Part shown: piece after piece, positions 19,221 to 47,307 of the stretch
Layout: each line of letters starts with the position of its first letter
How positions within the stretch are numbered: position 1 is the first letter of the stretch
Source: Candidatus Omnitrophota bacterium
Lineage (GTDB): Bacteria; Omnitrophota; Gorgyraeia; 2-01-FULL-45-10
Assembly: GCA_016935115.1 (NCBI GenBank)
Contig: JAFGRN010000002.1
Coordinates: 3,748-67,747, forward strand
Length of the DNA: 64,000 nucleotides
Direction: 5' to 3'
Made by a program: the position numbers and the translations under genes
The notes under the pieces: model-generated
What the model was told of the DNA's origin: nothing
Databases searched by the model: none
What the model saw: the letters and a program-made list of their open reading frames with translations, nothing else

Positions 19221-20211
19221 TCGAGTTGACAGATCTTCTTATTTCCCGCATGCGCATAGAATTCCATATATCGTAAACACTCTCTAAAAATATGTTTCCC
19301 ACTATCAGTGTGGCGCCATACCAATGGCAGCACGGATGGACCGTACCGTCGTGATATATGGTGAGTCTTTGATATGGTTGAGGGCACGGGCCCGGATTTT
19401 TCAGGTCCTTGCTCTCTATATAGAACATCTCCTGCTGGGCATCTCTGCTTGGATAGCCCTGAGCGGGATTTATATAAGCCTGTATGGATACAAAGTCCAC
19501 TTTATCCTTCCAGCTCCGCACAAATTCGTCCAGCTCACGTTCATTTATTTTACTCTTCACGAAAGATACCCTCGTTACCGGAAGCATGCTCTTCAGCTTG
19601 CGCTTCATGGCCAGCAGGGACCTGATATTGGATACCACCCGCTGCAGGTCTCCTCCCTTACGGACAATGCGATATGTAGATTCTGTCGCGGCATCGATCG
19701 AAAAATAGAGCTTTGTAAGTCCGGCGGCTATCAGCTCTGCCGAGAGCTTCCCGGTAAGCAATGTGCCGTTGGTAATCAATATGACGTCCAGGACACCCGC
19801 AGACCGAGCATATGCCACATAGCGGGCTATGTCAGGAATGAGAAGCGATTCGTTGTTCACGCCGAATGTCACCGACCGGAGCCCGCGGCGGATCCCATCA
19901 TCTATTATCTCTTTATATTTGGCGAAGTCGATACGCTTGCCCCTGTTATCCGGATGATAAGGATTGGACGGCTCAAGTTCGCCTGGATCCACCTGCAGGA
20001 TGCACTGCGGACATTGCAGGTTGCATGCCGCGGAGAGCTCAAAGTCGAGATGAATCGGATAATCCTGCACAAGCTCGCAATTGGCGGCCTTTTCCCAGCA
20101 GGCGCGATATTCGCGGTATGGCGCACCCAGAACCTGAGCGACCATGGCATCAGGGTCTTTTGTATACTCAAACTGTTTCCAGCGCTTGACCGTTTTCATA
20201 ATCTCTCTCAA
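19150..20211 (-). CDS. radical SAM enzyme with C-terminal SPASM/twitch-type Cys-rich domain
   Basis: CNLQCPQC radical SAM motif plus a C-terminal …GPCPQPY…HPCCHWYG auxiliary-cluster region. Confidence 0.7.
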   Translation of the reverse strand: MREIMKTVKRWKQFEYTKDPDAMVAQVLGAPYREYRACWEKAANCELVQDYPIHLDFELSAACNLQCPQCILQVDPGELEPSNPYHPDNRGKRIDFAKYKEIIDDGIRRGLRSVTFGVNNESLLIPDIARYVAYARSAGVLDVILITNGTLLTGKLSAELIAAGLTKLYFSIDAATESTYRIVRKGGDLQRVVSNIRSLLAMKRKLKSMLPVTRVSFVKSKINERELDEFVRSWKDKVDFVSIQAYINPAQGYPSRDAQQEMFYIESKDLKNPGPCPQPYQRLTIYHDGTVHPCCHWYGATLIVGNIFLESVYDIWNSMRMREIRRSVNSNDNKTPRECRICREAVFGERYAR

Positions 20212-21377
20212 TCCCAGATATTATCTTTGGCCCAATTACCGTTTACATCTTTCCACCATACCCGCGGATCCCTGAAGGTATCGGCTATTCTGTCAAACTC
20301 GCTTTCTGACATGCCCACATACGGAAGCCACCGGCGCAGGTCCTTTGACTTGACATGGTCCATACGGCGCACGATCTCGATGGCCTCGGGGCGGGAGATT
20401 CTTCCGGCCCTTATGTCTTTACAGCAATGGTCTGTGGCCCGGCCATACCCGAACTTTATGAACTTCATATAGTCGTGGATACCGTTCTCATGCATATCAT
20501 CCAGATTGGAGAGCGTCCGGTAAGTGCGTTCGAACGGCTCATCAGCGCCTTTGAATCCGTACTTATCCACCATGAGATTGCCATGCTCATTGGCCTCCCA
20601 CTTGAAAAAATTGGATACATATATTCCCCTGACGCCCACTCTCTTGATCTCTTCATCCGAAGGATACATCCACGGTATGAGATCTGCGGGTTTGAGCCCC
20701 TCGGCCAGCTCGGGCCTGCCCAATTTCCGCAGGCCGTCATCGGTCATGTCGTACCACTCGTATCCCCGCAGGCAATGTTCATGACGATAACGATATGTAA
20801 ACTCGACCATGTCCCTGTAGGAGTGCATCCCTCCCAGATCCATGAACCCGTGCTCACCCCATATCATGAGCGGTATATTCATCTGTACAGCAACACGGAT
20901 CGGGTACGTGAATATGCCGGCATGCGCATGCCAGTTCATGTCGCCCATGAGCCTGAACCCTATCCTGTTCAGCTTTATCAGAACATCTATGCTCGGAGTG
21001 AAGAATATGTGATCCACGCCGAATACCTTCCGCATATTGACCAGATTCTCCATGCCCGCGGGGGTATAGTTATTCCCATGATATGTAACAAGCAGGGGGT
21101 TCAGGCCGTAAATCTTCTTTATTATGTGAATCTGATAATAACTGTCCTTTCCGCCGCTCACGGGGATTATGCAGTCGTAATTTCTCCCGTCCTTTGAACG
21201 ATACTCCTCTATCATCTCTTCAAACATTGCCTTGCGCCTGTCCCAATCCACGTGAACCCTTTCAAGCGCCGTACGGCAACCGCTGCAGGTCCCGTTGTCG
21301 TCGAACGCAAGCGGGACCGCCGATGATGCCGGATACACGCATTTTCTGCACCAACGCATCTTTGGGGGCCTGTTCAT
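20208..21377 (-). CDS. N-acetyl sugar amidotransferase (WbuX/PseA family), second copy
   Basis: N-terminal Zn-ribbon CRKC…CSGC and PP-loop SGGKDSYY; paralogous to 5965..7077. Confidence 0.75.
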   Translation of the reverse strand: MNRPPKMRWCRKCVYPASSAVPLAFDDNGTCSGCRTALERVHVDWDRRKAMFEEMIEEYRSKDGRNYDCIIPVSGGKDSYYQIHIIKKIYGLNPLLVTYHGNNYTPAGMENLVNMRKVFGVDHIFFTPSIDVLIKLNRIGFRLMGDMNWHAHAGIFTYPIRVAVQMNIPLMIWGEHGFMDLGGMHSYRDMVEFTYRYRHEHCLRGYEWYDMTDDGLRKLGRPELAEGLKPADLIPWMYPSDEEIKRVGVRGIYVSNFFKWEANEHGNLMVDKYGFKGADEPFERTYRTLSNLDDMHENGIHDYMKFIKFGYGRATDHCCKDIRAGRISRPEAIEIVRRMDHVKSKDLRRWLPYVGMSESEFDRIADTFRDPRVWWKDVNGNWAKDNIWD

Positions 21378-21378
21378 G

Positions 21379-22167
21379 TCAATTCGTCCTCACGCCTATG
21401 CCGTTCCTGATCATATTATCTTTGGCCCTCGGATATGCCATTTCGGTAAAATGAAATATATTGCCGGCCGCGACCGCCGATACCGTGGTATTGCGCGCGA
21501 CATCGATCAGATCGCGGAATGTCCCCGCGCCCCCGCACGCTATCACCGGTATCGTCACGCTCTTCGCCGCTTTTCCGATCATACCGACATCGTAACCGTT
21601 CGCCATCCCGTCCCGGTCGATCGCATTTAAGAATATCTCGCCCGCGCCGCGTTTCTCCGCCTCGACAGCCCAGGCTACAGGATCGAGATCCGTCTCTTCC
21701 GCGCCGCCCTTATAGACCTTCGGAGCGCCGTTCATATACCTGTAATCTATCGAGACGACTATGCATTGCGAACCAAACTCTCTGGCGCTTCTCGTAATGA
21801 ACGACGGGTCCTCGATCGCCGCAGTATTTATCGTGACTTTGTCGGCGCCGCGCCTGATCCTCTCGCGAATGTCCTCGAGTGTCCTGATGCCCCCTCCGAA
21901 TGTGAGCGGCGCGAAGCAGACCTTCGATATTTCACGTATGATATCCAGGATGTTATTCTTTCCCGTCACCCTGAGATCGTCCCGGCGCAGGTCATAATAT
22001 TTCTCCCTGCTGATATCGACATATATGAGCTCGTCGACATTCCAGTCGTTGTAGCGCTTAACCTCGTCGAGCGGGTTGCCCAGGTTCTGATGGTAGCTGA
22101 ACGTCTCGCTCCTGACGATAAGGCCATTCTTCAAAAATAGCACGGGAATGAGCCTGCGTTTCAACAT
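21379..22167 (-). CDS. HisF-like cyclase subunit (WbuZ-like), second copy
   Basis: HisF-like TIM-barrel sequence (…GADKVTINTAAIEDP…IPVIACGGAG…). Confidence 0.7.
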   Translation of the reverse strand: MLKRRLIPVLFLKNGLIVRSETFSYHQNLGNPLDEVKRYNDWNVDELIYVDISREKYYDLRRDDLRVTGKNNILDIIREISKVCFAPLTFGGGIRTLEDIRERIRRGADKVTINTAAIEDPSFITRSAREFGSQCIVVSIDYRYMNGAPKVYKGGAEETDLDPVAWAVEAEKRGAGEIFLNAIDRDGMANGYDVGMIGKAAKSVTIPVIACGGAGTFRDLIDVARNTTVSAVAAGNIFHFTEMAYPRAKDNMIRNGIGVRTN

Positions 22168-24195
22168 CTATGCCTCTTCCGCATAACTCATCCGCCTTCT
22201 CATGCCGGGAGTATTGGTATGCCTGAAAAAAGACTGTTTCCATTCCGACGAATTACGAAGCTTCCTGCCTCTTTCATGAATATCGTTAAAGTGCGCTATA
22301 TTGGGAACCGACAATTTCAATCTTACGGGAGCGCATTTGTATCTGCCCAGCCTGTCCCTGTAAGACCCTCTCGCCCAGCTCAAGACATCGTGATTGAGTT
22401 TTATATAGATATTTTCCTCTTCCTTCTTCTCGGGGTTCAGGACCATATTCATGGCCAGCTTCTTCAGATCACGGGCCGCCGAACTGAAATCTCGCGCCTT
22501 GATATCGTCCTTATCGTCCAGCAGGACAGTCATAGCATCTATATATTCGTCGATACCCTTATCAAATTTATCGCCGAATACGAACTCTCCTATAAGCACA
22601 TGCCTGAACCTCGTGGGAGGGAAAGGCTTTTTTGAATCGATGATGGACTTTACATGCCTGTAGACCCCTTCCGTCGATTCGAAATAGACACCCTTCACCT
22701 TTCCGGCATACTCGGAGAAGAGGCCATTGAGTATCGGGTACTTATCAGACGAGCCGATTATTTCATCGAATATCCTTATCGGCTTTATCCCGTAGGTAAA
22801 GCCGTGATAAGCAAGCTCCCTCATATAACCGTAAAATAGCGTGATGGTGACGTAAAAATCGACCGCGTAAAGTTTATAGTGCTCCTCGGCCGTCATATAC
22901 TTCGAGCTCTTGACATGTTCCTCGCATTCACAGATCAGTTCTTCGTCAATAATGGATAGCGCATCCGCGCCCAGGGTGAAGTGTGATTCAAAACCATGTT
23001 TAGCCCTGCTATCCTTCGAAGCAAGCTCCGTGTTAGGCAAAAGCCACACTTCATGGCAGCCTACGCCATCGACCCGCAGTTCATATACATCGTTCACGCA
23101 CCTGGTAAAAGTTTCGTATGTCTCTCCGGGAAATCCGTGCAGGATCTCGGTTCCGGTAACCATATTATTCTCTTTAGCCCAACGGAACGCTTCGGACATC
23201 TCCTTCATCGAACAGTTTCTTCTGTTGATGTTTTTAAGAACCTCGGGAGTGGTCGACTGCAGGCTGATATTGTACGGTATGTGCTCCTTAAGCGCCAGGG
23301 CTACCCTCCTTACGCGGTCGTTCGTCGCTTTGTCCGTGTAGACCTTCAATGCTTCCGGATACCCTTCCTTTGAATATAGCCTTCCTATGAATTCGGCCAA
23401 TTCCACATCCCGGTCCAGGATGCCCAGATTATCGTCGGTGATGCGAAAGCTGCGGTTCTTTGCATGCTTCTTGATATAGAGGATCTCGTCCTTCGCCCTC
23501 TCCAGCGAAAAAGGACGGATCTTCGAATAAACTTTCTCTCCGGAAACACAGTAGGAACAGCGGTACGGGCATCCCCGCATCGTCTGAATAACCGGCATGA
23601 GCATTGGATCGCCTAAAAATTCATCCGTAGCTCCCGTCAAATAAGGTGAGGGTATCTCGTTGACATCCCCGAGAAGCGGCAGCAACAGGCCAGACGATAA
23701 CCGGCCCCTATCGTATGTAAAACAACCCTGAATCGGATCTGAAAATATGTTCTGTCTCGAAAGCGCGCCCATCACACGCTCCAGAAGACGAACCATCGGC
23801 AGCTCGCCTTCATACGGAATGTACACGTCAAACAAGCCGCCGTATCTATCGGCATAACGCTCTCTTATATTACCCTCGTTCGCCGGGATATTTAACCCCC
23901 CTGCCACAAGAATGGCATCCGGATGCATTCTTCGGACAGCCCTTGCGAACCATATGCTGAGATTTTCATTCCACGCGTATATACCGAACCCCGCTACATC
24001 GGGTTTCTCTATCTTTATCCTCTCGAGCAGCGCGTCGGGATAACGAAATGTGCGGATCTCCACGCCACCCTTAAAGTGCTTTTGAAGCATCGCCTTGACG
24101 TAAGAGATACCTATGGGAACCGTCGACGGGCTGATGTTGAAATAGGTATGCCCCAGGTCTGCTAAAAATATTTTCAAACGCGCTTTCGTATCCAC
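22168..24195 (-). CDS. large (675 aa) cobalamin-binding radical SAM enzyme, inserted between the HisH-like and HisF-like genes
   Basis: MRGCPYRCSYC with a B12-binding-like N-terminus; a member of the three-gene 675-aa paralogue group. Confidence 0.8.
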   Translation of the reverse strand: MDTKARLKIFLADLGHTYFNISPSTVPIGISYVKAMLQKHFKGGVEIRTFRYPDALLERIKIEKPDVAGFGIYAWNENLSIWFARAVRRMHPDAILVAGGLNIPANEGNIRERYADRYGGLFDVYIPYEGELPMVRLLERVMGALSRQNIFSDPIQGCFTYDRGRLSSGLLLPLLGDVNEIPSPYLTGATDEFLGDPMLMPVIQTMRGCPYRCSYCVSGEKVYSKIRPFSLERAKDEILYIKKHAKNRSFRITDDNLGILDRDVELAEFIGRLYSKEGYPEALKVYTDKATNDRVRRVALALKEHIPYNISLQSTTPEVLKNINRRNCSMKEMSEAFRWAKENNMVTGTEILHGFPGETYETFTRCVNDVYELRVDGVGCHEVWLLPNTELASKDSRAKHGFESHFTLGADALSIIDEELICECEEHVKSSKYMTAEEHYKLYAVDFYVTITLFYGYMRELAYHGFTYGIKPIRIFDEIIGSSDKYPILNGLFSEYAGKVKGVYFESTEGVYRHVKSIIDSKKPFPPTRFRHVLIGEFVFGDKFDKGIDEYIDAMTVLLDDKDDIKARDFSSAARDLKKLAMNMVLNPEKKEEENIYIKLNHDVLSWARGSYRDRLGRYKCAPVRLKLSVPNIAHFNDIHERGRKLRNSSEWKQSFFRHTNTPGMRRRMSYAEEA

Positions 24196-24208
24196 ACTCG
24201 CTCCGACG

Positions 24209-24832
24209 TTAACAGCAGACGGCCTCTTTTACCTCCGCGAACCGCCTGAGAATACCCAACCCCGCAGCCTGACTCTTCTCGGGATGAAACTGCACCGCAT
24301 AGATATTGCCTTTTTCAATCATGGCCGTAAACTCCAATCCGTAACGGCACGTTGCTGTAATTATCCGGCTATCCGCGGTATCGACATAATAGCTGTGGAC
24401 AAAGTACATGTCCGGGCTGCCGGAGGCATCGAGGAGGCGGTTACCGCGCCTGACTGTTATATCATCCCATCCCATATGGGGTATGCAGACACCCGTATTA
24501 TCCGGGATGCGCCTTACAACAGCGTCTATCCATCCGAGCCCATCATGGCGCCCGAACTCGAAACTCTCCCTGCATATGAGCTGCATGCCGAGGCATATGC
24601 CTAAAAACGGCTTATTCTGTTCTATAACCTCTTCCCGGAGCGCTTCAATGAATCCTCTTTTTCGGAGCGCTTCCATGCCGACACCGAATGCCCCTACTCC
24701 TGGGAGGACTATCCTGGAACAGGCGGAGAGATCATCCCTCTTTTCAATTACCTGGGCGGCGGCGCCGACATATTCGAAACCGTTAAGCACCGACTGGACA
24801 TTGCCCATACCATAATCAATAATACCTATCAT
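24209..24832 (-). CDS. HisH-like glutamine amidotransferase subunit (WbuY-like), second copy
   Basis: MIGIIDYGMGN start, catalytic GICLGMQ, and FHPEKS. Confidence 0.75.
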   Translation of the reverse strand: MIGIIDYGMGNVQSVLNGFEYVGAAAQVIEKRDDLSACSRIVLPGVGAFGVGMEALRKRGFIEALREEVIEQNKPFLGICLGMQLICRESFEFGRHDGLGWIDAVVRRIPDNTGVCIPHMGWDDITVRRGNRLLDASGSPDMYFVHSYYVDTADSRIITATCRYGLEFTAMIEKGNIYAVQFHPEKSQAAGLGILRRFAEVKEAVCC

Positions 24833-24834
24833 TG

Positions 24835-25881
24835 TTATCCTTTACCGGATCTGCCGGAATAAAAATGAGAGAGCTTCAGCGGTGTCCCGCGGCGAAGCGC
24901 CCTGCCGGCACGTTTTCCTATAACCGTCTTGATATGCACCGGAGCGATGCCATTAGCCGGGCGTATCGAACGGATATTGCCGGCCGTCAGGAGAGCTCCC
25001 TTCTTTATATCCTCTACGATAAAGAGCGACCTGCGGAATATGCGATTCTTCTTCTCCCCGGCGGTGAGCTTATAGGACACATCCCCCGACGCCTTCTCGG
25101 CTGTACGCACATCCTGCACCAGCTGCTTCATCTCATCCGGCTCAAGCGAGAAAAAACTGTCGGGTGTCTTCATCGCCCTGGATAGCGTGAAATGCTTCTC
25201 TATGACCGATGCGCCGAGCGCTACCGCTACAACCGGCACTACAGCGCTCAGGCTGTGATCGGAAAGGCCGATGGGGCATCCGAAGCGGGAGCGCATGTCC
25301 GGTATGGTCCTCAGGTTCATCTCTTCGGGAACGGCCGGATAACTGCTGACGCATTTCAGGAGTGTGATGGACCCCGCGCCATGCGAACGCGCAGCCGTAA
25401 CCGCCGCGCGAACCTCTTTCCTGCTGGCCATTCCAGTAGACATAATCAGCGGCTTCTTCGTTCCGGATACGTACTCGATCAATGGTATGTCGATGAGCTC
25501 AAAAGACGCTATCTTGTGCGTCGAAACGCCGAGCTCCTCCAGAAAATCCACGGAAGTAGGGTCAAAAGCGGTCGACAGAAATCCCAGCCCTTGGTCGTCC
25601 GCCTCTTTCTTCAGCTTTTTGAACCACTTCCATGGCGTATACGCCTTGCGGTACAACTCATACAACGTCTGGCCTCCCCATCTGGGATGGTCTATCCTGA
25701 AGTGCCCGAGCGCGCTGTCTATCGTAAGCGTATCTGGCGTATAGGTCTGAAATTTCACCGCATCTACACCGCACGCCCTGGAAGCGCGTATGAGCTTAAT
25801 AGCAGTCCCTATGTTCTGGCCGTGATTGGCGGAAATTTCGGCTATGATAAATGTTTTCTTATCTCTGGATACATTCTTCAT
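24835..25881 (-). CDS. NeuB-family nonulosonate synthase (PseI-like) with C-terminal SAF domain
   Basis: KTFIIAEISANHGQN…VDAVKFQTY motif and a C-terminal antifreeze-like domain. Confidence 0.75.
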   Translation of the reverse strand: MKNVSRDKKTFIIAEISANHGQNIGTAIKLIRASRACGVDAVKFQTYTPDTLTIDSALGHFRIDHPRWGGQTLYELYRKAYTPWKWFKKLKKEADDQGLGFLSTAFDPTSVDFLEELGVSTHKIASFELIDIPLIEYVSGTKKPLIMSTGMASRKEVRAAVTAARSHGAGSITLLKCVSSYPAVPEEMNLRTIPDMRSRFGCPIGLSDHSLSAVVPVVAVALGASVIEKHFTLSRAMKTPDSFFSLEPDEMKQLVQDVRTAEKASGDVSYKLTAGEKKNRIFRRSLFIVEDIKKGALLTAGNIRSIRPANGIAPVHIKTVIGKRAGRALRRGTPLKLSHFYSGRSGKG

Positions 25882-25884
25882 CGA

Positions 25885-27117
25885 TCAGGCAGCCTGTTGT
25901 TTAATGTCTTCTTTTGTCGGTTTATATGCCATAAAATACATCATCCCGAGTCCGTTCGTACCTTTGAATATATGCCTTGATCCCAATATCCTCTTTTTAA
26001 TAGCAACCTTATCTTTACGTTTCAGGGGCCTGATGATAGCGCAAAGCTCCCTGAAGAATGGATCCTGTTTTTTGCCAATACGCCTCATTAAATCGACCTT
26101 GCCGACCGCCGAACGATACCTGCGTATCATGTCAAGAAAACTATCACAATTAAATGGTGAATTAGGAGAAAAATCATTAACATAGTCTATGAGATCGTAC
26201 TGTGTTTCGGCCAGTTTCCGGAATGAATCCAGAAGCCATGGGACCTCTTTAATATCGTCCCTCTTATGAGTCATCCAGAGCGCTTCCGCCAGGACGCCTA
26301 TGTCCGGATACCTCTGTGCCATGGTCGTCGGGCGCATGCCGGAATCTCCGAACACGGGTAACAGGATGGGTGGATACGACGAATAGTACCTGAGACCCTT
26401 ATCCGACATCCATTTGAGCACTTCCGACACGGCAGGATAATCGGTCTTGGGATTTACAAATTCGTCATAGATAATCGCCCGGCGCGTCCTCTTGCCGAAT
26501 TTCTGGGCCCTGGAGATATCTTCACGGAACAATTCCTCGGCTACGTCAACTATATCTTCCTCTGTCCTGGCAAAACGGAATATTATCGCCCTCTGGAGCA
26601 TCCTCTGGAAACAACCAGCTTTGGAGTTTATTCCGAGGAAAAGATATCCTCCTTCTTTCAGGTGATCATTCATTATCGAAAAAGCGCCTTCTTTGTCGGA
26701 GGTGTGATGAATCGCTCCGTTGGACACGACGATATCGTACTTTTTCCTATCACTGAAGTCGAAGATGGATGAATTGATAATCTTATGTTTTTTCGGATGC
26801 GGCGCGAACTTATCGAAGATCATCCTTGCCCGGGCGCATGCCAGGTCATTCATCTCTACGAGCGTGCAGGTAGCCCCCCACCTTGCGTACTGGACGGTGT
26901 TCTCCCCAGTCCCCGCGCCGAGGTCTATGAGCGTCTTGCCAAGGAACATATCGATGGGAAAATGCAGGAGATCCCTGAATAGCCTGACTCGCTTGCTTTC
27001 CCAGCTGTGAAAATCTTTCTGCGACCTGTCGATGAAATAAGTTGAAGGATTCTCCTTCCTGTATACCTTAAGCACTCTCTTCTCCATCGACCTGGTCTTT
27101 TTTGCTGTCATACGCAT
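25885..27117 (-). CDS. class I SAM-dependent methyltransferase with C-terminal extension (410 aa)
   Basis: SAM-binding motif I LIDLGAGTGENT and an acidic loop VEMND. Confidence 0.6.
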   Translation of the reverse strand: MRMTAKKTRSMEKRVLKVYRKENPSTYFIDRSQKDFHSWESKRVRLFRDLLHFPIDMFLGKTLIDLGAGTGENTVQYARWGATCTLVEMNDLACARARMIFDKFAPHPKKHKIINSSIFDFSDRKKYDIVVSNGAIHHTSDKEGAFSIMNDHLKEGGYLFLGINSKAGCFQRMLQRAIIFRFARTEEDIVDVAEELFREDISRAQKFGKRTRRAIIYDEFVNPKTDYPAVSEVLKWMSDKGLRYYSSYPPILLPVFGDSGMRPTTMAQRYPDIGVLAEALWMTHKRDDIKEVPWLLDSFRKLAETQYDLIDYVNDFSPNSPFNCDSFLDMIRRYRSAVGKVDLMRRIGKKQDPFFRELCAIIRPLKRKDKVAIKKRILGSRHIFKGTNGLGMMYFMAYKPTKEDIKQQAA

Positions 27118-27118
27118 C

Positions 27119-28867
27119 CTATGTGTTTAAGACATCATCCTTGTCATTAACAACAAGATAATTCTCCATCGCCAGATATTTCAATCCACTGTCCCGGAAT
27201 GCCCTGAGAGCGTCGTTCGGCGTGCAAACTATAGGCTCCTCATGCATGTTGAAGCTGGTATTAATGAGGCTCGGGTTCCCGGTGAGCCTGTAATATTGAG
27301 TGAGGATCTTATGGAACGACGGGTTTGAATTGCGGGATACTAATTGCGGCCTGGCTGTCCCGTCGACATGCACCACACCGGGCGAGTGCTTCTTCATCCA
27401 TGGCGTGCAATCAAATGTGGTGGTCATATGCAGGGCCCGTTCCTTATAATTCGCGATCCTCCTATAGCATTTTTCGGCCGCTTCCCACAGGGTCGCCGGA
27501 GCAAAGGGCATAAACTCGCTTCTCCTGAGGGCTTTATTGAGCCAATCATTGACGGTTCTGTCCATAGTTCCGTACAGTATAGTGCGGTTGCCGAGAGCCC
27601 GTGGGCCATATTCCATTCTTCCCGCAAAACGCATTATGCAATTATTATCCTTCAAAAGCTCCGCTATCCTGACTTCAATATCCGAATGATAGGAAGACGA
27701 ATATCCGAACCTCCTGATCTCTGAAAGAACTTCCCTGTCGCCGAACTTCGGCCCCCTGTAAAGAGATCCTATCTTTACGGGCTTAAGCCTCTTCTGAAGG
27801 GCATAATAGTAGAGGGCGCTGCCGGCCGACATCCCGCCGTCTCCCATCTGCGGATAGACAAACAGGTCTTTTATCCCGGCCTTCTCCCTTATCTTCTGAT
27901 TCAATAATACGTTGGCAAATATACCGCCCGCAACCGTGACCTTCGAACCTTTTGGAATCAGGTCATTCACATACTCGAGGACAACCCTTTCCAGGACACG
28001 CTGGGCCGCCGCGGCGACATCTTCGCGCTTATATTTTTTCACGATCTCCTCAAGACGGGTATTTTCAAACTTTGCCGCGTACAGGCCGGCCTCAAAACCC
28101 CCTTCAAAAGCTTTTCTGACCCCGTTATAAGAGATCATCTTTCTCATCCACGGCATGGCCCTGTCGGCATCTCCGAGGGCGGCAAGCCCCAGCACCTTAC
28201 CCTCGTGGCGATGAGGGATGAATCCGAGGGCCTTTGTAACACTGCCATAAAAATACCCGAGCGAATCGAAAGAGTTCGACAAAGCTATCTTTTCTATGCG
28301 TCCCTTGCTTCCGCGGCACAGGATGTTGGACTCCATCTCACCCCAGCCATCCGCGGTCATTACATAGCAATCGTCCCAACCGCTGGCATAGTAGGCGGAG
28401 GCAGCATGGGACATATGATGCTCCACCACCTTTATCGGTTTCTTGAATTTTTTGAATTGCCGGATAAGGCTTATATTTCGCTCGAAAACTACGTGTTTCT
28501 CGTGCTCATAGCGCTCGCGGATCTCCTTCAGTTTATACGCCTTGAGATCCTTTGAAAGACACGATTTGCTTATCTTATCCTCAACGTACGAGAACTTATC
28601 GCGCATAAGCCCGACTTCGGCATCCAGGCCGTGATTGATAAATTCTATCCCATCCTCGCTGGAACAGTATCCCTGCGTCGCGATAACATCGACATCCTTC
28701 ATGGATATTCCCGCGTCACGAAGCACCCACTCTATCGAGCGCCGGGGAATCCCGTAGAAGAGCTTAACCCTGTTAAGCCGTTCCTCGTTTATCACACTGA
28801 CGAGCTTCCCGTTCTTTACGATGCATGCTCCCGCATCAGACAGATAGCTTATACCAAGTATGATCAA
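27119..28867 (-). CDS. carbamoyltransferase, NodU/CmcH family
   Basis: MIILGISYLSDAGACIVKNGKLV…EERLNRVK and EHHMSHAASAYYASGWDD…ADGWGE are hallmarks of NodU-type O-carbamoyltransferases. Confidence 0.8.
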   Translation of the reverse strand: MIILGISYLSDAGACIVKNGKLVSVINEERLNRVKLFYGIPRRSIEWVLRDAGISMKDVDVIATQGYCSSEDGIEFINHGLDAEVGLMRDKFSYVEDKISKSCLSKDLKAYKLKEIRERYEHEKHVVFERNISLIRQFKKFKKPIKVVEHHMSHAASAYYASGWDDCYVMTADGWGEMESNILCRGSKGRIEKIALSNSFDSLGYFYGSVTKALGFIPHRHEGKVLGLAALGDADRAMPWMRKMISYNGVRKAFEGGFEAGLYAAKFENTRLEEIVKKYKREDVAAAAQRVLERVVLEYVNDLIPKGSKVTVAGGIFANVLLNQKIREKAGIKDLFVYPQMGDGGMSAGSALYYYALQKRLKPVKIGSLYRGPKFGDREVLSEIRRFGYSSSYHSDIEVRIAELLKDNNCIMRFAGRMEYGPRALGNRTILYGTMDRTVNDWLNKALRRSEFMPFAPATLWEAAEKCYRRIANYKERALHMTTTFDCTPWMKKHSPGVVHVDGTARPQLVSRNSNPSFHKILTQYYRLTGNPSLINTSFNMHEEPIVCTPNDALRAFRDSGLKYLAMENYLVVNDKDDVLNT

Positions 28868-29913
28868 TTTGGCCCATCTCCTCTTTCAAGCAGAATCTTA
28901 TTGAGAGCGGAATATGCGCGATCGGGGCTCTTGCCGTCTATGATGCGCTGGCCTATCTCAGAACACCTGCGGCGTTCCTGCCTGGGCATCAGGCCCATGA
29001 CGCATCTGCGCACATTTTCAATTATCTCGGGATCGTCATGCCATCCGGCAAATGTCATAAATCCGGCGGCTTCCCAGCCGGAAAGGTTCACTTTCTGATT
29101 ATCGGCGACGCCGATACCCACCGTAGGGACACCCATAGACGCCAGTTCATAGAGCGTCTGCCCGCCGGCCGATATGGAGATGTCCGCCTTTCCCATGGCA
29201 TCTCTCATGGCCCGGGCATCAGGATGATAGATCAGCTCCACGCCATTTCCGGTCAGCTGTTCTATCCTCCCGACCTCTTTAAAACCTTTTCCCACAATTA
29301 CCAGCACCGACAGTTCCGGAAATCCGGAGCGGAACATCTCCAGAACGCGCGGCGTCATCCGCCGCATATCCTCCCCACCGAATGTAATGAGCGCGGTTTC
29401 AGGCAGAGCCGGTATGTCCTTTTTGGGAGCTTTCCGGAATTCGCTTCGCAGGAAGGCGTACTGCGCGCCGAGAATGTAACTCATCTCCTCTCTTTTGGGA
29501 TAACCCAGTTTCTCCGAGGATATGGCGCCGTTAAGTACCACTCCTTTCGGATAATCCATCCTTTTGAAATCGTCAATATATACGGCGCATCCGGCCTCAT
29601 CGGAAACCCTTTTGTAAAAACTTCTTCCGGCCAGGTAAGAATCCAATATCACCATATCGGAATCTCGCACGTATCCGAAGAATCTATCAGCCTCATTGAT
29701 CCAGTCAAATACATGCAGGCGCTTTCCGCTTACCAGATCCGCCACTGCTTCGTCTCCGTTTATGATGAAGAACGGCTCGTCCCCATTATCCTCAAATACC
29801 TCGTACAGGGATATACACCTGGTTATATGCCCGAAGCCTATACTCGCGCTTCCTTCGGTAATGATACCGACTTTCATCCCACGGCGATCCATATTTTGTC
29901 CTCTTTGCACCAC
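28864..29913 (-). CDS. PseG-like UDP-sugar hydrolase (MurG-like GT-B fold)
   Basis: N-terminus KVGIITEGSASIGFGHITRC resembles the PseG (UDP-2,4-diacetamido-2,4,6-trideoxy-hexose hydrolase) N-terminal G-loop. Confidence 0.6.
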   Translation of the reverse strand: MVQRGQNMDRRGMKVGIITEGSASIGFGHITRCISLYEVFEDNGDEPFFIINGDEAVADLVSGKRLHVFDWINEADRFFGYVRDSDMVILDSYLAGRSFYKRVSDEAGCAVYIDDFKRMDYPKGVVLNGAISSEKLGYPKREEMSYILGAQYAFLRSEFRKAPKKDIPALPETALITFGGEDMRRMTPRVLEMFRSGFPELSVLVIVGKGFKEVGRIEQLTGNGVELIYHPDARAMRDAMGKADISISAGGQTLYELASMGVPTVGIGVADNQKVNLSGWEAAGFMTFAGWHDDPEIIENVRRCVMGLMPRQERRRCSEIGQRIIDGKSPDRAYSALNKILLERGDGPN

Positions 29914-30794
29914 TTATCCAGCTCTTCATCTATGTAGGGCATGGGCCCGAGCATCTTCTCCGCTCTAGAAACATCCAGGGTCGTATTTTTAGGGCGCCGC
30001 GCGGTAAAACGCTCTTCATCTATGCTCTTCGGCGTTATTAGGGCCGGATCGAGCCCTAACCTTCTTGCGATACGGCATCCCAGGTCGTACTTGCTCACTC
30101 CGTCGCGGGCACCGAGATGCAGGCATCCTGTAAGTCCCGATCGGATCAGCCTCATGATAAATCCCGCATATGTCATTATATCGAGCGGCGCAAATATTAC
30201 ATCCGTAAACATGTTTATAGGAATCCCCGACCGTAAACTCCGCGCAACCCATTCCGCCAGCGAGTCTTCGCGCGTATGGCGGTGACCGATGATATTCGAC
30301 CGTAATATGAGATAATCTCCGGCGCTTTTCCTGACCTGCCGCTCACCCTCGAGCTTTGACATGGCATAATTATTTATCGGATTCGGCTTATCATCTTCAC
30401 TGTACATGCCCATGGCCCCGTCAAATACGGAGTCAGTCGATATATAGACAAACTTTATGTCCGGCGCTGCCGATTCGGCAAGGTACGCCGCCGAATCGGC
30501 ATTCACGGAGAGCGCCATTTCGTAGTTCTTTTCGCATATGTCAACATTCGTAAGGGCCGCGCAATGCACTATGACGTCCGGTTTAGTCCTGGTAACCATA
30601 TCCCGCACCGCTGATCTGTCGCAGATATCCACATTGAATGATTCCGCGGCATCCGTACTTTTAAGCGTTCTGGAGACGCTCATCGTATGATATTCTGTAT
30701 TCAGCATTCTGATCAGGGCGGCCCCCAGCATACCGGTACCTCCGACGATAAGCGCTCGGCCGCCCACTCTACGCAACCGCCTTCTGCTCGACAT
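29874..30794 (-). CDS. NAD(P)-dependent sugar reductase/epimerase (SDR, RmlD/FnlB-like)
   Basis: ALIVGGTGMLGAAL Rossmann motif at SDR size; overlaps neighbours on both sides. Confidence 0.55.
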   Translation of the reverse strand: MSSRRRLRRVGGRALIVGGTGMLGAALIRMLNTEYHTMSVSRTLKSTDAAESFNVDICDRSAVRDMVTRTKPDVIVHCAALTNVDICEKNYEMALSVNADSAAYLAESAAPDIKFVYISTDSVFDGAMGMYSEDDKPNPINNYAMSKLEGERQVRKSAGDYLILRSNIIGHRHTREDSLAEWVARSLRSGIPINMFTDVIFAPLDIMTYAGFIMRLIRSGLTGCLHLGARDGVSKYDLGCRIARRLGLDPALITPKSIDEERFTARRPKNTTLDVSRAEKMLGPMPYIDEELDKWCKEDKIWIAVG

Positions 30795-31494
30795 GCCGGT
30801 TTATCGCCACGAGATCGGGCCTATTCCTGAGCAGGGCAACGACGTCGCGCGATCGGATAAACTTAAGATGCCCCAGCGCCTTAAATATTTCGGACACGTG
30901 ACGAAGATCGTCGGCGGTATCGACGGTCACCCTGAAAGATGATGCATCGTCATCGCCGGCATATGCCTTTACAGGAAGGTTTTCGTATATGTACGGGGTT
31001 ACATGCTCCCGTTCACGCTTCTCTCCTGCTTTGTCATATGCCTCTTTGAGCGAATCCATACTGAAAACTTCAGCGTCAAACCCGCGGGGGTATGTCCTTG
31101 TAATGGTATTGGACATGTACGCTACATCATCAGCTGACAAAAAGGAGCGCACCATGTCATCGATCATATATGGATCCGATAGCGGACAGTCGGAAGTTAC
31201 CCGCACCACGGTATCCAACCTGTATTCTTTCGCCGCTTCGTAATATCGTGCCAGCACGTCGTCCTCATCGCCGCGATATACTGAAACGTCCTCATCCCGG
31301 GCGCATTTGACTATAACGTCATCGCGCCCGTTCCTGGTGGTAGCCACGATTATCACGTCCGCGGTCTCGCAGGCTTTCAATCGCCCGAGCAGAATGGCAA
31401 GCATGGGCTTATCCGCTATCTCCATCATCACCTTGCCGGGAAGCCTGCTCGAACCCATCCGCGCCTGCACAATGATACCGGTCCTTCCAGCCAT
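30769..31494 (-). CDS. CMP-nonulosonate cytidylyltransferase (PseF/SpsF-like)
   Basis: TGIIVQARMGSSRLPGKV N-terminus typical of the PseF/SpsF cytidylyltransferase family. Confidence 0.65.
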   Translation of the reverse strand: MAGRTGIIVQARMGSSRLPGKVMMEIADKPMLAILLGRLKACETADVIIVATTRNGRDDVIVKCARDEDVSVYRGDEDDVLARYYEAAKEYRLDTVVRVTSDCPLSDPYMIDDMVRSFLSADDVAYMSNTITRTYPRGFDAEVFSMDSLKEAYDKAGEKREREHVTPYIYENLPVKAYAGDDDASSFRVTVDTADDLRHVSEIFKALGHLKFIRSRDVVALLRNRPDLVAINRHVEQKAVA

Positions 31495-32472
31495 TTATCC
31501 GCCTCCGACAAGAGACTTAAGTTCGCTCACGGAAAGCCATTCACCGTTCGAATCGCTGGAATACCTGAACCCGTCGGGCACGCTCCTGCCGCGCTTGTAC
31601 TTCTTATCCGGATGGTAAAACGCGGGCCGGATTACATAATACCTCCCGAACTCCGTGGTATTACGGGAGTCGTCTTCGGAGATCATCACCTCGTGAAGCT
31701 TCTCGCCCGGCCGGATACCTATAGTCTTCAGGCGGCATCCGGGCGCGATAGCCCTGGCAAGATCCGTTATTGACATGCTAGGAATCTTCGGAACAAATAT
31801 CTCGCCGCCTTCCATGATCTTGAATTTATCGATAACAAACTTCACCGCCTCGTCAAGCGTGATCCAGAAACGTGTCATACGCGGATCCGTTATCGGCAGG
31901 ATGGCGGTCTTCTTCCTGGCAAGAAAGAACTCCACGACTCCGCCGCGGCTTCCCAGCACATTTCCGTACCGGACCACCGAGAACCGCACGCCGCCCTTTC
32001 TGGAATAGAAATTGCCGTCGACAAACAATTTATCTGAACAGAGCTTGGTCGCGCCGTACAGGTTAACGGGATTGCACGCCTTATCACTGCTTAAGGCTAT
32101 AACCTTCTTGACGCCGCATTCGATCGAGGTCTCGATAAGATTCATCGCGCCGATTATATTCGTCTTTATGGCCTCACCGGGGTTGTACTCCATTAGCGGC
32201 ACCTGTTTGAGCGCCGCAGCGTGAACCACATAGTCGACGCCACGGAGCGCCATCCGCAGGCGTTCGCGGTCCCTGACATCTCCTATAAAATACCGCATCA
32301 CTTCTTTATGCGCGGCGAATTGCTCCTGCATCTTGAACTGCTTAAATTCGTCGCGGCTATACACTATCAGTCGCTTCGGCATATGTTGCCGCAGAACAGC
32401 CTGTATAAAACATTTCCCGAATGACCCCGTACCGCCGGTAACCAGTATTACCTTTCCCCTGAATATGCCCAT
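31495..32472 (-). CDS. pseB: UDP-N-acetylglucosamine 4,6-dehydratase (inverting), PseB/FlaA1/CapD family
   Basis: KVILVTGGTGSFGK…FIGDVRD…LYGATK match PseB-type short CapD dehydratases; GGAGA lies upstream of the ATG. Confidence 0.7.
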   Translation of the reverse strand: MGIFRGKVILVTGGTGSFGKCFIQAVLRQHMPKRLIVYSRDEFKQFKMQEQFAAHKEVMRYFIGDVRDRERLRMALRGVDYVVHAAALKQVPLMEYNPGEAIKTNIIGAMNLIETSIECGVKKVIALSSDKACNPVNLYGATKLCSDKLFVDGNFYSRKGGVRFSVVRYGNVLGSRGGVVEFFLARKKTAILPITDPRMTRFWITLDEAVKFVIDKFKIMEGGEIFVPKIPSMSITDLARAIAPGCRLKTIGIRPGEKLHEVMISEDDSRNTTEFGRYYVIRPAFYHPDKKYKRGRSVPDGFRYSSDSNGEWLSVSELKSLVGGG

Positions 32473-32489: not shown

Positions 32490-32984
32490 TTAAACGAATT
32501 TATCGACTAAAGTAAGCGCTGTTGTCGCAAACGACTTGAGCTCTTCTATCTTTTTAAGCCTGTCCTCAAATATCGTCTTGACCCTCTTCTCCTCTTCGGT
32601 TTCATTTGCGCCCTGGGCGCGGATCATGTCCTTGAACCCATCGACGATGTCGGAAGTTTCATCCAGCCTTCTCTTCATTACCTCTTTTATCTTCCTGAGC
32701 ATAAAACTCTTCACGTCCAGGTTGGCTTCGTAATAGTCCTTGCGCGAACCCTTGACCCAGACGCTGTTCACCGCTCCCCAATTTTCAAGCACACGTATGT
32801 TGACGCTTACATTGCCTTTGCTGACCTTAAGTTTTTCGACAATCTCATCGAGGGATAAGGGCTTATCGCTCAAGTACAGCACGGCATACAGCTGGGCAAT
32901 GAATCTGTTAAATCCGAAATTATCACACAATTTGCCTATTCTCTCTATGAATTTGTCCTGCGCAAGTTCAAGCTTACTATCCAT
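32490..32984 (-). CDS. GbsR/MarR-family winged-helix transcriptional regulator
   Basis: Small protein (164 aa) with an N-terminal wHTH-like region (…FIAQLYAVLYLSDKPLSLDEIVEKLKVSKGNVSVNIRVLENWGAV…). First gene downstream of a promoter/operator region, with GGAGA 6 nt before the ATG. Confidence 0.65.
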   Translation of the reverse strand: MDSKLELAQDKFIERIGKLCDNFGFNRFIAQLYAVLYLSDKPLSLDEIVEKLKVSKGNVSVNIRVLENWGAVNSVWVKGSRKDYYEANLDVKSFMLRKIKEVMKRRLDETSDIVDGFKDMIRAQGANETEEEKRVKTIFEDRLKKIEELKSFATTALTLVDKFV

Positions 32985-33007
32985 TTTTAATCTCCTATTT
33001 AGGAATG

Positions 33008-33055
33008 TTTAAAACGTTCTAAATGAACTTTACCATACCGGATAATATATGTCAA
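33008..33055 (-). promoter_or_regulatory. sigma70-like promoter (TTGACA, 17-nt spacer, TGGTAAAGT extended -10) with a 16-bp imperfect palindromic operator TTTAAAACGTTCTAAA immediately downstream
   Basis: On the minus strand, TTGACA corresponds to 33055-33050 and the 17-nt spacer to 33049-33033. The -10 TAAAGT (33032-33027) is preceded by TG. The palindrome TTTAnAACGTTnTAAA at 33023-33008 overlaps the probable +1 region. An identical 16-mer with the same architecture recurs at 47260-47275. Confidence 0.6.
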
Positions 33056-33108
33056 GCAGATTATTTTACTATCATAACACTATACCTATCAATCACTTAG
33101 TTATAAAA

Positions 33109-34479
33109 TTAGTATAATGAGCTCAGCTTTTCAAGATACGTATCAGACTTCGGATATGTTACCGGTCTTTGTATAAGAGCTGTTATCTCATTGAAGTAAT
33201 GGTCCAATACCTCATCCGGAAGCTTTGTGAAATTGATCGTTCGCTCAAAGAACAGGTTACCCAGGCTCTTGATAAATTCCCATTCATCCTTGATCTGGCC
33301 GTTATTTACACATTCCCTCCACAGACGGGTGCCCGGTGACGGCGTCAGGTATGACAACTTTCCCTTCTTCTCAAGGCCGTTTCTCTTTATGAAATCGATC
33401 ATGTCAATATAATCCTTCTCTGTATCCCATGGAAAGCCTACGATGAAATTTGCGGAAACGCCGATACCATATTTTCGCAGCAGCGCAAGCTTTCCCTCGA
33501 CATCCCTGATCCTTATACCCTTACTTACGCGATTCAAGGTCTCCTGGTTTACGGACTCGATGCCGGTTGCCACAACCGCAAGGCCGTTATCTCTGCCTAG
33601 CGAGCATATCTCCTCGTCTATGGCATCTATACGACATTGTCCTCTATATGTAAAGTTCATGCCCAACCGTTGTTTTTTCACTATAAAGTCCTTGTAAAGC
33701 GCTTTTATCTCCAGAAAATTCTCGTCGACAAAGTAGAATCTGTCGAGATCATGATTATTTATGATCCCTGCCATCTCATCCAGAATCATATCAGGGCTCT
33801 TTACGCCTATTCCCTGGACCAGCTTGTGACAGAACGAACAATTCCCTTTACAGCCACGGGATCCCATAATATCGAACGACTGATTAGTTTCTTTAAGGTA
33901 TTTTATATAAAATTCCATATCAAGCGACTCGTAGTTTGAGGCGGAAAGAGCTGTCAATTGATACATATTGTTGACACGCGCTCCGACGATCATCTTATCG
34001 GGTTTTATTCCGAAGATACTGCCATTGAGCCTGTAGAATATGCCCGGTATATTATCCGGACGGAAGTTTCCGGCCCAAATAGATCGTATGAACGCTGGAA
34101 AGGCCTTCTCTCCTTCGCCTACAAGGATATACGCGCACTTACAGTTATTGAGCAATAGTTCCGGCATCGAGGAAGGCAAAGCTCCGCCATAGATGATGAT
34201 ATGTTCCGGATTTATATCAAGCGCGATCCCGGCAAATTTTTCAACCTGGTTTATCTGGTCGTTCCCGGCCATTATATTAAAACCTATTATGGCCGGCTTC
34301 GACGGGATCCTTTCCCGGAAGACCCTTTCACGATCTGCCGTATCCACGGGAACGAGATCGATGGCGTCAAAGTCGATATTATGCAGTCTGAGGGTATTGG
34401 CGAGCACGGTCAGCCATATGGGCAGCTGTACCTGCACGCTCTTTCTCGATACGTTTACAATAAATACGTCGTATGGCAT
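33109..34479 (-). CDS. cobalamin-binding (class B) radical SAM enzyme
   Basis: SRGCKGNCSFCHK with a B12-binding-like N-terminus. The track start (34629) lies inside the upstream gene; the ATG at 34479 (MPYDVFIVNV…) sits 16 nt after the upstream stop. Confidence 0.75.
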   Translation of the reverse strand: MPYDVFIVNVSRKSVQVQLPIWLTVLANTLRLHNIDFDAIDLVPVDTADRERVFRERIPSKPAIIGFNIMAGNDQINQVEKFAGIALDINPEHIIIYGGALPSSMPELLLNNCKCAYILVGEGEKAFPAFIRSIWAGNFRPDNIPGIFYRLNGSIFGIKPDKMIVGARVNNMYQLTALSASNYESLDMEFYIKYLKETNQSFDIMGSRGCKGNCSFCHKLVQGIGVKSPDMILDEMAGIINNHDLDRFYFVDENFLEIKALYKDFIVKKQRLGMNFTYRGQCRIDAIDEEICSLGRDNGLAVVATGIESVNQETLNRVSKGIRIRDVEGKLALLRKYGIGVSANFIVGFPWDTEKDYIDMIDFIKRNGLEKKGKLSYLTPSPGTRLWRECVNNGQIKDEWEFIKSLGNLFFERTINFTKLPDEVLDHYFNEITALIQRPVTYPKSDTYLEKLSSLY

Positions 34480-34495
34480 AGTGTTGTCCCGTATA

Positions 34496-35983
34496 TTAAC
34501 AGCATGACGCGCTCCGCGAGGACAGGCCTGTAAGCCTTTCCTGAAACTGTTTTCTCGCGTCTTCCGCGCATATATCGTTACCCTCGGCAATCTGTATCTG
34601 CGGCCAGATGTCTTCCGGCAGGCGGACATAGAACTCGAACGTCCGGAGCAGCCCGTCTATCTCTCCGGATGTCATCTTAGACATACCGAAAGACGATGCC
34701 CTTGAGACCGGCGTGATCATGCCGCTTTCATCCCTCAGGCGCGGATGGAACCGGTTATATATTTCGGTCCCGGGATAAGGATATATGGCGTAAACGTTGA
34801 CGGCGGGAATATCTAGAGATTTATTCAACTCTATCGTCTCAAAAACATTCTCCCGGGTCTCGCCCGGCAGCCCTATCATATTGAAAGTAGTGACCCGTAT
34901 GTTCGCGCCCTTTAAAATATCCACGGCATGCCGGATCTGGTCATTCGACATCCTGCGATTTAGGATCTCGGCGCGGATACGCTCATTCCCCGATTCGAGC
35001 CCGATATTAGCCGCCACGCAACCCATGGAGACCAGCAGGTCGACCTTGCGCTTGCTTATCGTCTCGGGGCGTAATGAACAGGCAAATTTAATGCCGAGCG
35101 GCTTCAGTTCGCCCACAAGCGACGTCAGGAATTTTTCATCGAATAATGCCAGCGACTCGTCGTAAAAACGGAAGAAGTCCGCATTATATCGCTCCTTCAG
35201 GAAGCGGATCTGCCGGCCCGTAGTCTGCGGGGATTGGAACCGGAAATACCGGCCGCAGCCCCTGAACTTATCCCTGAAGGCCCAATTCAGGCAATATGTG
35301 CATCTCTCCGGACAGCCGCGCGACATAAGAAAACATCCCCCGGAATATACGGTGCCCTGGAACGGGCGGAAGAGATGGCGCTTGTCGAAGATGCCCCAGT
35401 CCATATCGGGCAGATTGTCGAGATTGACGAACGGGCGCAATTCATTGAAACGCGTACCGCGTTCCGTCTTATACCCCAGATTCCGGATACCGGTGATATC
35501 CTTTCCTTTTTCCATCGCTTCGCATAATTCGACCATGAACTCTTCCCCCTCACCGACGCAGATCATATCGATCTCCCTGAAGGACAGGGCATCTTCGGGG
35601 CAAATGGTCGGATGGATCCCCCCGGCAACCACGCGGCAGGACGGCTTCACTTTTTTGAGAAGATCAATTACAGCGTCAAAATAGCCGGTCAATACGGATA
35701 CCGCCACCAGGTCGGGCCGGAACCGCTGCAGTTTTTCCGCAAACGCATCCTCCAGCGAAAATACCGGATCATCGGCAGTCAGGTCCTCCAGTGTGTAGCG
35801 GGTCGGAAGCAATATTCTTGTGCCATAGGTCGGCGTGGTATCACGGACAGCCGTCTTTATGAACGTCCAGTCGAAAACGTCCACTTCGTGTCCGCGCTCT
35901 TTCAACAATGAGGACAAAGTGGCTATCCCCGTCGGAACTCCGTTCGAAAGATAGGCATTGGGATACATGAAAAGTATCTTCAT
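34496..35983 (-). CDS. cobalamin-binding (class B) radical SAM enzyme, 495 aa
   Basis: MKILFMYPNAY… B12-binding-like N-terminus and SRGCPERCTYC. Confidence 0.8.
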   Translation of the reverse strand: MKILFMYPNAYLSNGVPTGIATLSSLLKERGHEVDVFDWTFIKTAVRDTTPTYGTRILLPTRYTLEDLTADDPVFSLEDAFAEKLQRFRPDLVAVSVLTGYFDAVIDLLKKVKPSCRVVAGGIHPTICPEDALSFREIDMICVGEGEEFMVELCEAMEKGKDITGIRNLGYKTERGTRFNELRPFVNLDNLPDMDWGIFDKRHLFRPFQGTVYSGGCFLMSRGCPERCTYCLNWAFRDKFRGCGRYFRFQSPQTTGRQIRFLKERYNADFFRFYDESLALFDEKFLTSLVGELKPLGIKFACSLRPETISKRKVDLLVSMGCVAANIGLESGNERIRAEILNRRMSNDQIRHAVDILKGANIRVTTFNMIGLPGETRENVFETIELNKSLDIPAVNVYAIYPYPGTEIYNRFHPRLRDESGMITPVSRASSFGMSKMTSGEIDGLLRTFEFYVRLPEDIWPQIQIAEGNDICAEDARKQFQERLTGLSSRSASCC

Positions 35984-39230: not shown

Positions 39231-39246
39231 CTTCCCTTTCTCACTG

Positions 39247-40389: not shown

Positions 40390-40408
40390 CTGTCCTGAAC
40401 CTCTATAA

Positions 40409-43034: not shown

Positions 43035-43050
43035 GATATCCTCGCCGGAG

Positions 43051-43614: not shown

Positions 43615-43618
43615 AGCT

Positions 43619-47231: not shown

Positions 47232-47259
47232 ATTGTTCAGATGGCTCTATTTATGAGTG

Positions 47260-47307
47260 TTTAAAACGTTCTAAACGAATATTATCATACTACCCTATCT
47301 GTGTCAA
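47260..47307 (-). promoter_or_regulatory. second copy of the promoter/operator module: TTGACA, 17-nt spacer, TAATAT -10, then the same 16-bp palindrome TTTAAAACGTTCTAAA
   Basis: On the minus strand, TTGACA corresponds to 47307-47302, the 17-nt spacer to 47301-47285, TAATAT to 47284-47279 and the operator to 47275-47260. The 16-mer is identical to that at 33008-33023. Confidence 0.6.

Follow-up and report, generated by a model that had tools for sequence, protein, structure and literature searches.

A palindromic element at two promoters of an Omnitrophota glycan cluster as the candidate operator of a GbsR-type regulator

Genes, promoters and palindromes in the glycan cluster

The minus strand of the Omnitrophota DNA analyzed here (64,000 nucleotides, referred to as the window) carries between positions 20208 and 63905 a very large same-strand glycan cluster. 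At least eight of its genes encode B12-binding radical-SAM proteins, among them 22168-24195, 33109-34629, 34496-35983, 47366-49381, 50934-52505 and 53298-55898, and the cluster also contains SPASM and MiaB-like radical-SAM genes. Two of the B12 radical-SAM reading frames, 33109-34629 and 34496-35983, overlap by 134 nt when counted from the first possible start, and the true start of the downstream one is probably located later. Only two gaps of more than 100 bp interrupt the minus-strand gene run of about 60 kb, one at 32985-33108 and the other at 47232-47365. Each of them contains a promoter-like sequence (P1 and P2) followed by a copy of the same palindrome (O1 and O2).

The first gap comprises 124 bp and separates the stop codon of the B12/radical-SAM gene at 33109-34629 (minus strand) from the ATG at 32984 of a gene for a 164-amino acid winged-helix regulator of the MJ223/GbsR type (32490..32984, minus strand). 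About 50 nt of unremarkable AT-rich sequence precede the exact -35 hexamer TTGACA of P1 (33050..33055, minus strand). A 17-nt spacer ending with TGg leads to the extended -10 element at 33027..33035 of the minus strand (TG at 33035-33034, one nucleotide, TAAAGT at 33032-33027), and 10 of the 12 hexamer positions agree with the consensus. Two nucleotides (tc) after the -10 element begins O1, the 18-bp palindrome ATTTAGAACGTTTTAAAC (33007..33024, minus strand), which is followed in minus-strand order by aTTCCTAAATa and the Shine-Dalgarno sequence GGAGA (32991..32995, minus strand), 6 nt ahead of the ATG. A degenerate third 9-bp unit, TTCCTAAAT, lies at 32997..33005 (minus strand), shifted by 1 nt compared to its position in relatives. 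The hexamers, the 17-nt spacer, the TG motif and the GGAGA box had been described in an initial annotation of this DNA and were all found in place on the minus strand. The 16-bp imperfect palindrome of that annotation is present as well (33008-33023, TTTAAAACGTTCTAAA on the plus strand, with one mismatched pair), but the unit conserved in relatives is 18 bp long (33024-33007).

Judged by its sequence, P1 is best explained as a sigma-70-type promoter with a predicted transcription start at about 33019-33021, inside the left arm of O1. A scan of 19 kb for consensus promoters returned 31 matches compared to 20.3 +/- 4.5 expected, which is barely above chance, so that such matches alone are weak evidence. 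P1 belongs to only three matches with 10 of 12 consensus positions, and it is its conservation across genomes that raises it above the chance level. Another promoter-like match with 10 of 12 positions, TTGATA-18-TAAAAT (33063-33092, minus strand), lies upstream of P1 and was excluded from the element because it is not conserved in L133, the closest non-identical relative (78% identity of the regulator).

The annotation had also proposed a search for further copies of the 16-mer. With up to three mismatches allowed on both strands, two sites were found in the 64-kb window compared to 0.42 expected, and the second one is an exact copy at 47260-47275, located behind P2. This promoter consists of a -35 hexamer TTGACA (47302..47307, minus strand), a 17-nt spacer ending with TGa and an extended -10 element at 47279..47287 of the minus strand (TG at 47287-47286, one nucleotide, TAATAT at 47284-47279). 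The operator O2, GTTTAGAACGTTTTAAAC (47259..47276, minus strand), starts 2 nt (tc) after the -10 element, as at P1. It is followed by aCTCATAAATa, and its degenerate third unit CTCATAAAT (47249..47257, minus strand) has the same offset and form as the one at O1. The two regions resemble each other from the -35 hexamer to about 12 nt beyond the palindrome and differ elsewhere. O2 lies about 14.3 kb upstream of O1. A site matrix of 28.9 bits, derived from 22 distinct sites of other genomes with the window left out, scored O1 with 28.9 bits and O2, the best site of the window, with 30.5 bits. The third-best site (15.7 bits, 13418-13435) is below the shuffle maximum of 18.2, so that the window holds exactly two sites and all weaker candidates were dismissed as being within the shuffle range.

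The regulator heads the pseudaminic-acid-like operon, as annotated, which occupies 20208..32472 on the minus strand and is part of a same-strand run that goes on below 20208. PseB starts 17 nt after the regulator stop codon, and this short gap contains GAGGAG. PseB is followed by a CTP_transf_3 cytidylyltransferase, an RmlD-like reductase, a PseG-like protein, a NodU-like carbamoyltransferase and a methyltransferase, and then by PseI, HisH, a B12 radical-SAM methyltransferase, a 262-aa reading frame (21379-22167) and WbuX, an N-acetyl sugar amidotransferase encoded together with HisH in this operon. PseB and PseI score above their NCBIfam equivalog cut-offs (493.8 bits vs 407.75 and 439.8 bits vs 340.25, respectively), and the PseG-like protein is just under its own (142 bits vs 153.55). 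A candidate aminotransferase (57506-58690) and a candidate acetyltransferase (56860-57513) are encoded elsewhere in the cluster. From these assignments, the operon behind P1 is predicted to specify a pseudaminic-acid-like sugar pathway. The operon behind P2 (33109..47231, minus strand) encodes an NTP transferase, an SIS isomerase, epimerase/dehydratases, an RmlC-like epimerase and a GHMP kinase, accompanied by C- and O-methyltransferases, radical-SAM proteins and a GT2 glycosyltransferase, and its predicted product is a modified heptose or deoxy-sugar. No terminator was predicted between the P2 operon and P1.

The regulator and its relatives

Pfam assigns the regulator to generic wHTH models only, and weakly. 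A match to MJ223 (PDB 1KU9) extends over residues 6-148 with 35% identity (E=2.6e-24). An AlphaFold monomer model, computed with 37 homologues (pLDDT 82), has an N-terminal winged helix followed by two long C-terminal helices (helices 3-22, 27-38, 45-52, 56-69, 91-123 and 130-163; wing strands 72-75 and 84-87). When this model was compared to the PDB with Foldseek, 1KU9 was again the top match (TM 0.61-0.65), and the classical MarR-family structures were distant (TM about 0.4, E about 1e-3). Both the sequence and the predicted fold thus bear out the earlier description of a GbsR/MarR-type regulator gene behind the promoter, and homologues carry the JGI label 'GbsR (MarR family)'. A palindromic site is consistent with binding of a regulator dimer.

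Among NCBIfam models, CudC is the best match of the regulator (E=2.5e-19), with a score of 69.7 bits that does not reach the equivalog cut-off of 218. In GbsR proteins, choline and betaine are proposed to bind to a stretch rich in aromatic residues that follows the wing (PMC6207618). In an alignment with Bacillales GbsR-type proteins, this aromatic cage is absent after the wing of the regulator: the segment DWYxxFxxxFxxKW is replaced by LD-VKSF---MLRKIK, which contains one Phe and a 4-residue deletion. A choline/betaine-sensing GbsR equivalog was rejected on these two grounds, and the missing cage argues against choline or betaine as the effector. Neither glycine betaine synthesis genes nor Opu transporter genes were found beside the regulator; in the window and in most relatives, its neighbors are nucleotide-sugar and glycan genes.

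The regulator is 100% identical to a protein from a Candidatus Omnitrophica MAG and has more than 500 homologues, mostly of 164 aa and mostly from Omnitrophota, with 53-78% identity among the best 120. One genome per species was scanned, yielding 70 loci. The promoter and palindrome precede the regulator gene in 34 of 50 related loci, in which the regulators are 38-78% identical. A site within 200 nt upstream of the start codon was detected in 18 of 22 loci with at least 49% identity, in 16 of 28 loci with 38-48% identity and in none of 23 loci with more distant or partial GbsR relatives, including Bacillales GbsR proteins. In four loci (L001, L023, L024 and L029), the proximal site is missing and a site instead stands in front of an operon that contains the regulator further down; in L001 it is located 6.9 kb upstream.

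The layout found in the 130 nt upstream of orthologues consists of TTGACA, 17 nt, TATAAT or TATTAT, 1-2 bases and then the abutting halves (G)TTTAGAAC and GTTCTAAA(C). The consensus is a perfect 18-bp palindrome of 28.9 bits, built from the 9-bp half-sites GTTTAGAAC and GTTCTAAAC without any space between them. Of the 49 non-redundant promoter-linked sites, 45 have a perfect TTGACA hexamer 29-35 nt ahead of the first 18-mer position, and in 27 of them the hexamer starts 30 nt ahead. In an alignment of 20 genomes, the -35 hexamer and 12 positions of the 18-mer are invariant, and the spacer and the flanks are not conserved; the sequence of the gap around promoter and palindrome likewise differs among related loci. 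Purine-rich boxes are found in relatives at the Shine-Dalgarno position of GGAGA. L133 illustrates this pattern: it retains the promoter, the 18-mer, a third unit GTTCTAAAA, the Shine-Dalgarno sequence and the gene order regulator-PseB-cytidylyltransferase, and the rest of its gap is different. Such a fixed distance within unconserved surroundings is the footprint expected of an autoregulatory operator that overlaps +1. In 1.04 Mb of sequence, 53 sites were counted compared to 5.8 in shuffled sequence, and 43 of the 53 fall within the 1.4% that lies directly upstream of the regulator. The autorepression layout proposed for the window, with an operator over the predicted +1, thus appears to recur at a fixed distance before orthologous regulator genes.

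Some relatives contain arrays of 9-bp GTTnnnAAC units. In relatives, the third unit takes the form G.T..AAA immediately after the 18-mer and is a clean GTTCTAAAC in L025; clean third units occur in L025 (9929-9955), L027 (225-251) and L133 (1569-1595), and also in L033, L034, L039 and L130. Five units in a row, two copies of GTTTATAAC, two of GTTTAGAAC and one of GTTCTAAAC, are found in L079 at about 1285-1347. These arrays suggest that more than one dimer binds. GC-rich arrays of GTTCGG repeats followed by CCGAAC repeats lie upstream of 33%-identical homologues in Verrucomicrobiota and Kiritimatiellia bins (L044, about 3310-3438, and L049, about 3670-3796); they retain the GTTC/GAAC core, but a hairpin or a REP-like element is just as conceivable. 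In four loci of distant homologues from non-Omnitrophota bins (L042 at 10619, L043 at 10611, L046 at 4599 and L053 at 10613), the palindrome is located about 120 nt after the regulator gene, in front of a gene for a 650-aa radical-SAM protein with an HMPTM-type zinc ribbon, and no obvious TTGACA-17-TATAAT accompanies it.

The regulator of the relatives resides within large same-strand glycan clusters. Directly behind it are genes for NeuB-type synthases, PseB-like and other epimerase/dehydratases, DegT aminotransferases, CMP-sugar synthetases, UDP-GlcNAc 2-epimerases and NTP transferases, and ahead of it often those for glycosyltransferases and a transglutaminase-like protein. The most frequent neighbor is the B12-binding radical-SAM family with 46 members in the loci analyzed. 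L004 (10505-13075) and L005, which bear Omnitrophota or Planctomycetia labels, are the only loci in which an NMT1-type ABC transporter (substrate-binding protein, ATPase and permease) is encoded behind the regulator in place of sugar genes. No second P2-type target turned up in relatives within loci with 10-kb flanks, and this flank limit may be the sole cause.

An exact 18-mer scan of metagenomes that was blind to the regulator served solely as a control. Of the 62 contigs it retrieved, 18 encode the regulator immediately next to the 18-mer; in 13 of these, a promoter close to the consensus, with 10 or more of the 12 hexamer positions matched, immediately precedes the site. Three more contigs were grouped with them, namely L109, which has the same promoter, and L111, both cut at the contig end, and one with a truncated regulator gene. 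The remaining matches, about 41 of the 62, have neither promoter nor regulator and look like chance or coding matches.

Proposed operator function and competing explanations

Considering sequence, geometry and conservation, the palindrome is very probably the regulator's own operator, by which two sugar-biosynthesis operons would be controlled. It is likely that the regulator acts as autorepressor and jointly represses the two nucleotide-sugar operons behind P1 and P2. A regulator dimer would bind the 18-bp palindrome O1, which spans about -6 to +13 of P1 and thereby the discriminator, the start and the first 13 or so transcribed bases, and would block RNA polymerase at or just after initiation, leading to repression of its own gene and of the co-transcribed pseudaminic-acid-like operon. 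Binding of the same regulator to O2 at P2 would repress the modified heptose or deoxy-sugar operon, and this second operator-bearing promoter implies that the regulon includes at least one further operon. As transcripts from P2 can read into P1, occupied O1 may also serve as a roadblock to them. A small-molecule effector, presumably other than choline or betaine, would release the repressor.

It is hardly conceivable that the palindrome and the promoter match arose by chance in an AT-rich gap. Promoter-like matches are indeed common in the region (31 compared to 20 expected), and in metagenomes roughly two thirds of the perfect 18-mer copies (about 41 of 62) resemble chance or coding matches, but the exact duplicate with identical geometry within the window, the results of the matrix scan, the concentration of the 53 sites (5.8 expected) upstream of orthologues and the invariance of the -35 hexamer and 12 positions of the 18-mer, in contrast to the spacers, refute a chance occurrence. 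It is rather improbable that the operator belongs to a different, unlinked transcription factor, such as a global regulator, for which the adjacent wHTH gene is merely a target. The GAAC/GTTC core occurs in other operators too, for example in the LexA (Cheo) box of Gram-positive bacteria, which reads GAAC-N4-GTTC. However, GAAC and GTTC abut at O1 and O2, i.e. their spacing is 0 instead of 4, and the site follows the wHTH gene rather than the SOS gene set, so that a LexA box was discarded. Moreover, the site tracks the regulator clade: it is present at identities of 38% and above in several phylum-level bins and absent in 23 of 23 distant GbsR relatives, and the promoter-linked copies of metagenomes adjoin the regulator gene unless the contig ends before it could appear.

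That the palindrome acts at the RNA level is very improbable. It would then form a stem-loop in the 5'-leader, with the arms GUUUAGA and UCUAAAC and the loop ACGU, and function in mRNA stabilization or as target of an RNA-binding protein in place of a DNA operator. The palindrome can form a 7-bp hairpin, and positions 6 and 13 are occupied by G..T, which is compatible with a G-U pair, in 18 of 49 sites and by A..C in 3; such A..C combinations nevertheless do exist. The P2 leader (47232-47276, minus strand) folds unusually well (-9.3 kcal/mol, z=-4.1) only as a transcript that begins with the very first base of the 18-mer. This fold is lost (-3.1 kcal/mol) when transcription is taken to start inside the palindrome, as expected: a distance of 1-2 nt from the -10 element would place the start at positions 4-7 of the 18-mer and yield a transcript devoid of most of the left arm. 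The palindrome hairpin is missing from the minimum-energy folds of the leaders (z=-0.85 for the P1 leader), 5 of 7 arm pairs are invariant with no pair changed on both sides, the covariation score of the arms does not exceed that of shuffles (94/500), and Rfam gave no match at E<=1 in 32800-47500. The extra 9-bp units are arranged as direct repeats, up to five in L079, which fits protein binding. A DNA operator is therefore preferred to an RNA hairpin, given the conservation of the arms in sequence, the lack of compensatory changes and of an Rfam match, and the predicted start inside the left arm. A hairpin UUCCU/AGGAG that would sequester the Shine-Dalgarno sequence in the P1 leader was likewise considered and is not significant (-4 kcal/mol, z=-0.85). 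The G at left-arm position 6 is kept more often than the C in the right arm. This asymmetry would not be expected if protein and DNA were perfectly symmetric in their contacts; a bias towards G around +1 and/or common descent of the sites may account for it.

It is also unlikely that the regulator binds O1 but activates or has a dual role, or that O1 mainly insulates against read-through from P2 as a roadblock instead of mediating autorepression of P1. Some MarR-family proteins are activators, GbsR itself forms a roadblock when bound downstream of the start (PMC7396694), and the lack of a predicted terminator from the P2 operon to P1 would allow a roadblock or insulator function. On the other hand, a site at about -6 to +13 of promoters with an exact -35 hexamer, a 17-nt spacer and TGn is typical of repression, and promoters that are already consensus-like have little need of activation.

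On a larger scale, the pair of regulator and operator might be a phylum-wide, dedicated switch for surface glycans (nonulosonic acids or modified sugars) in Omnitrophota and some neighboring lineages, a tentative reading that is somewhat doubtful. The regulator is unusually conserved, with 55-78% identity across many MAGs. As part of such a switch, it would recognize arrays made up of two to five 9-bp GTTnnnAAC units at promoters close to the consensus, and its signal could come from an intermediate of nucleotide-sugar synthesis or from contact with a host, to name two examples. To our knowledge, the Omnitrophota have no cultured, genetically tractable members, so that gene regulation in this phylum is essentially unknown. 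If the reading is true, it would describe a type of glycan-cluster regulator new to the GbsR family and open gene regulation in an uncultivated phylum to experiments, which is rarely possible. The finding itself provides a precise cis-element, GTTTAGAAC abutting GTTCTAAAC and covering about -6 to +13 of promoters of the form TTGACA-17-TATAAT, paired with a small assayable protein, and the 18-bp matrix can be used to predict regulons in any Omnitrophota genome. The GbsR family, so far associated with the control of osmoprotectant genes and cytochrome bd, is thereby linked to large surface-glycan clusters rich in B12 radical-SAM enzymes.

Relation to known regulatory systems

In the literature searched, no paper was found that connects regulators of the GbsR type with nonulosonic-acid clusters or with Omnitrophota, and the regulator clade, the operator with abutting half-sites, its fixed position at the promoter and the association with Omnitrophota glycan genes are not described. 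No paper containing the 16-mer was found either, and the 12-mer core TAGAACGTTCTA matches only eukaryotic heat-shock elements. This core is identical to a perfect heat-shock element, nGAAnnTTCn, whose cognate factor HSF is a winged-helix protein, too; the likeness is probably a coincidence.

A close comparison partner is GbsR of Bacillus subtilis, which controls gbsAB and opuB and shares with the regulator described here the MJ223-like winged helix and the long C-terminal helices. Its operators resemble O1 and O2 in being A/T-rich inverted repeats at or after the start, and it controls more than one operon, as is predicted here (PMC7396694, PMC6207618). GbsR represses by blocking the polymerase from operators downstream of the start (PMC7396694). 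Its half-sites are 4 bp apart and downstream of +1, whereas the half-sites described here abut (9+9 bp) and overlap the predicted +1. GbsR targets osmoprotectant genes and possesses the choline-binding aromatic cage; the predicted targets here are nucleotide-sugar operons and the cage is absent. Unlike for GbsR, an operator at the regulator's own promoter appears to be the rule in the clade studied here.

OpcR of B. subtilis and CydE of Alishewanella belong to the same family; both repress operons next to their own genes and have roles unrelated to choline. OpcR has an inverted-repeat operator over the core promoter, which overlaps the -35 region and differs from the GbsR operator in sequence and spacer length. 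CydE controls cytochrome bd and responds to sulfate, and neither of the two proteins is associated with glycan clusters. MJ223 of Methanocaldococcus jannaschii (1KU9) is the closest solved structure by both sequence and predicted fold. It has no known operator or function, whereas the regulator described here comes with a defined candidate operator. The MJ223 dimer in the crystal was reported to require rearrangement before it could fit B-DNA (PMC6207618), which counts against the proposed model.

The layout and the protein fold are of an already known kind and do not alter the knowledge of the mechanism of MarR-type repressors. In MarR-family autorepression, as represented by MarR and MepR, a dimeric wHTH protein binds a palindrome of 16-20 bp over its own promoter and is released by a ligand. 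The layout at P1 is alike, and the C-terminal architecture of the regulator is of the MJ223 type.
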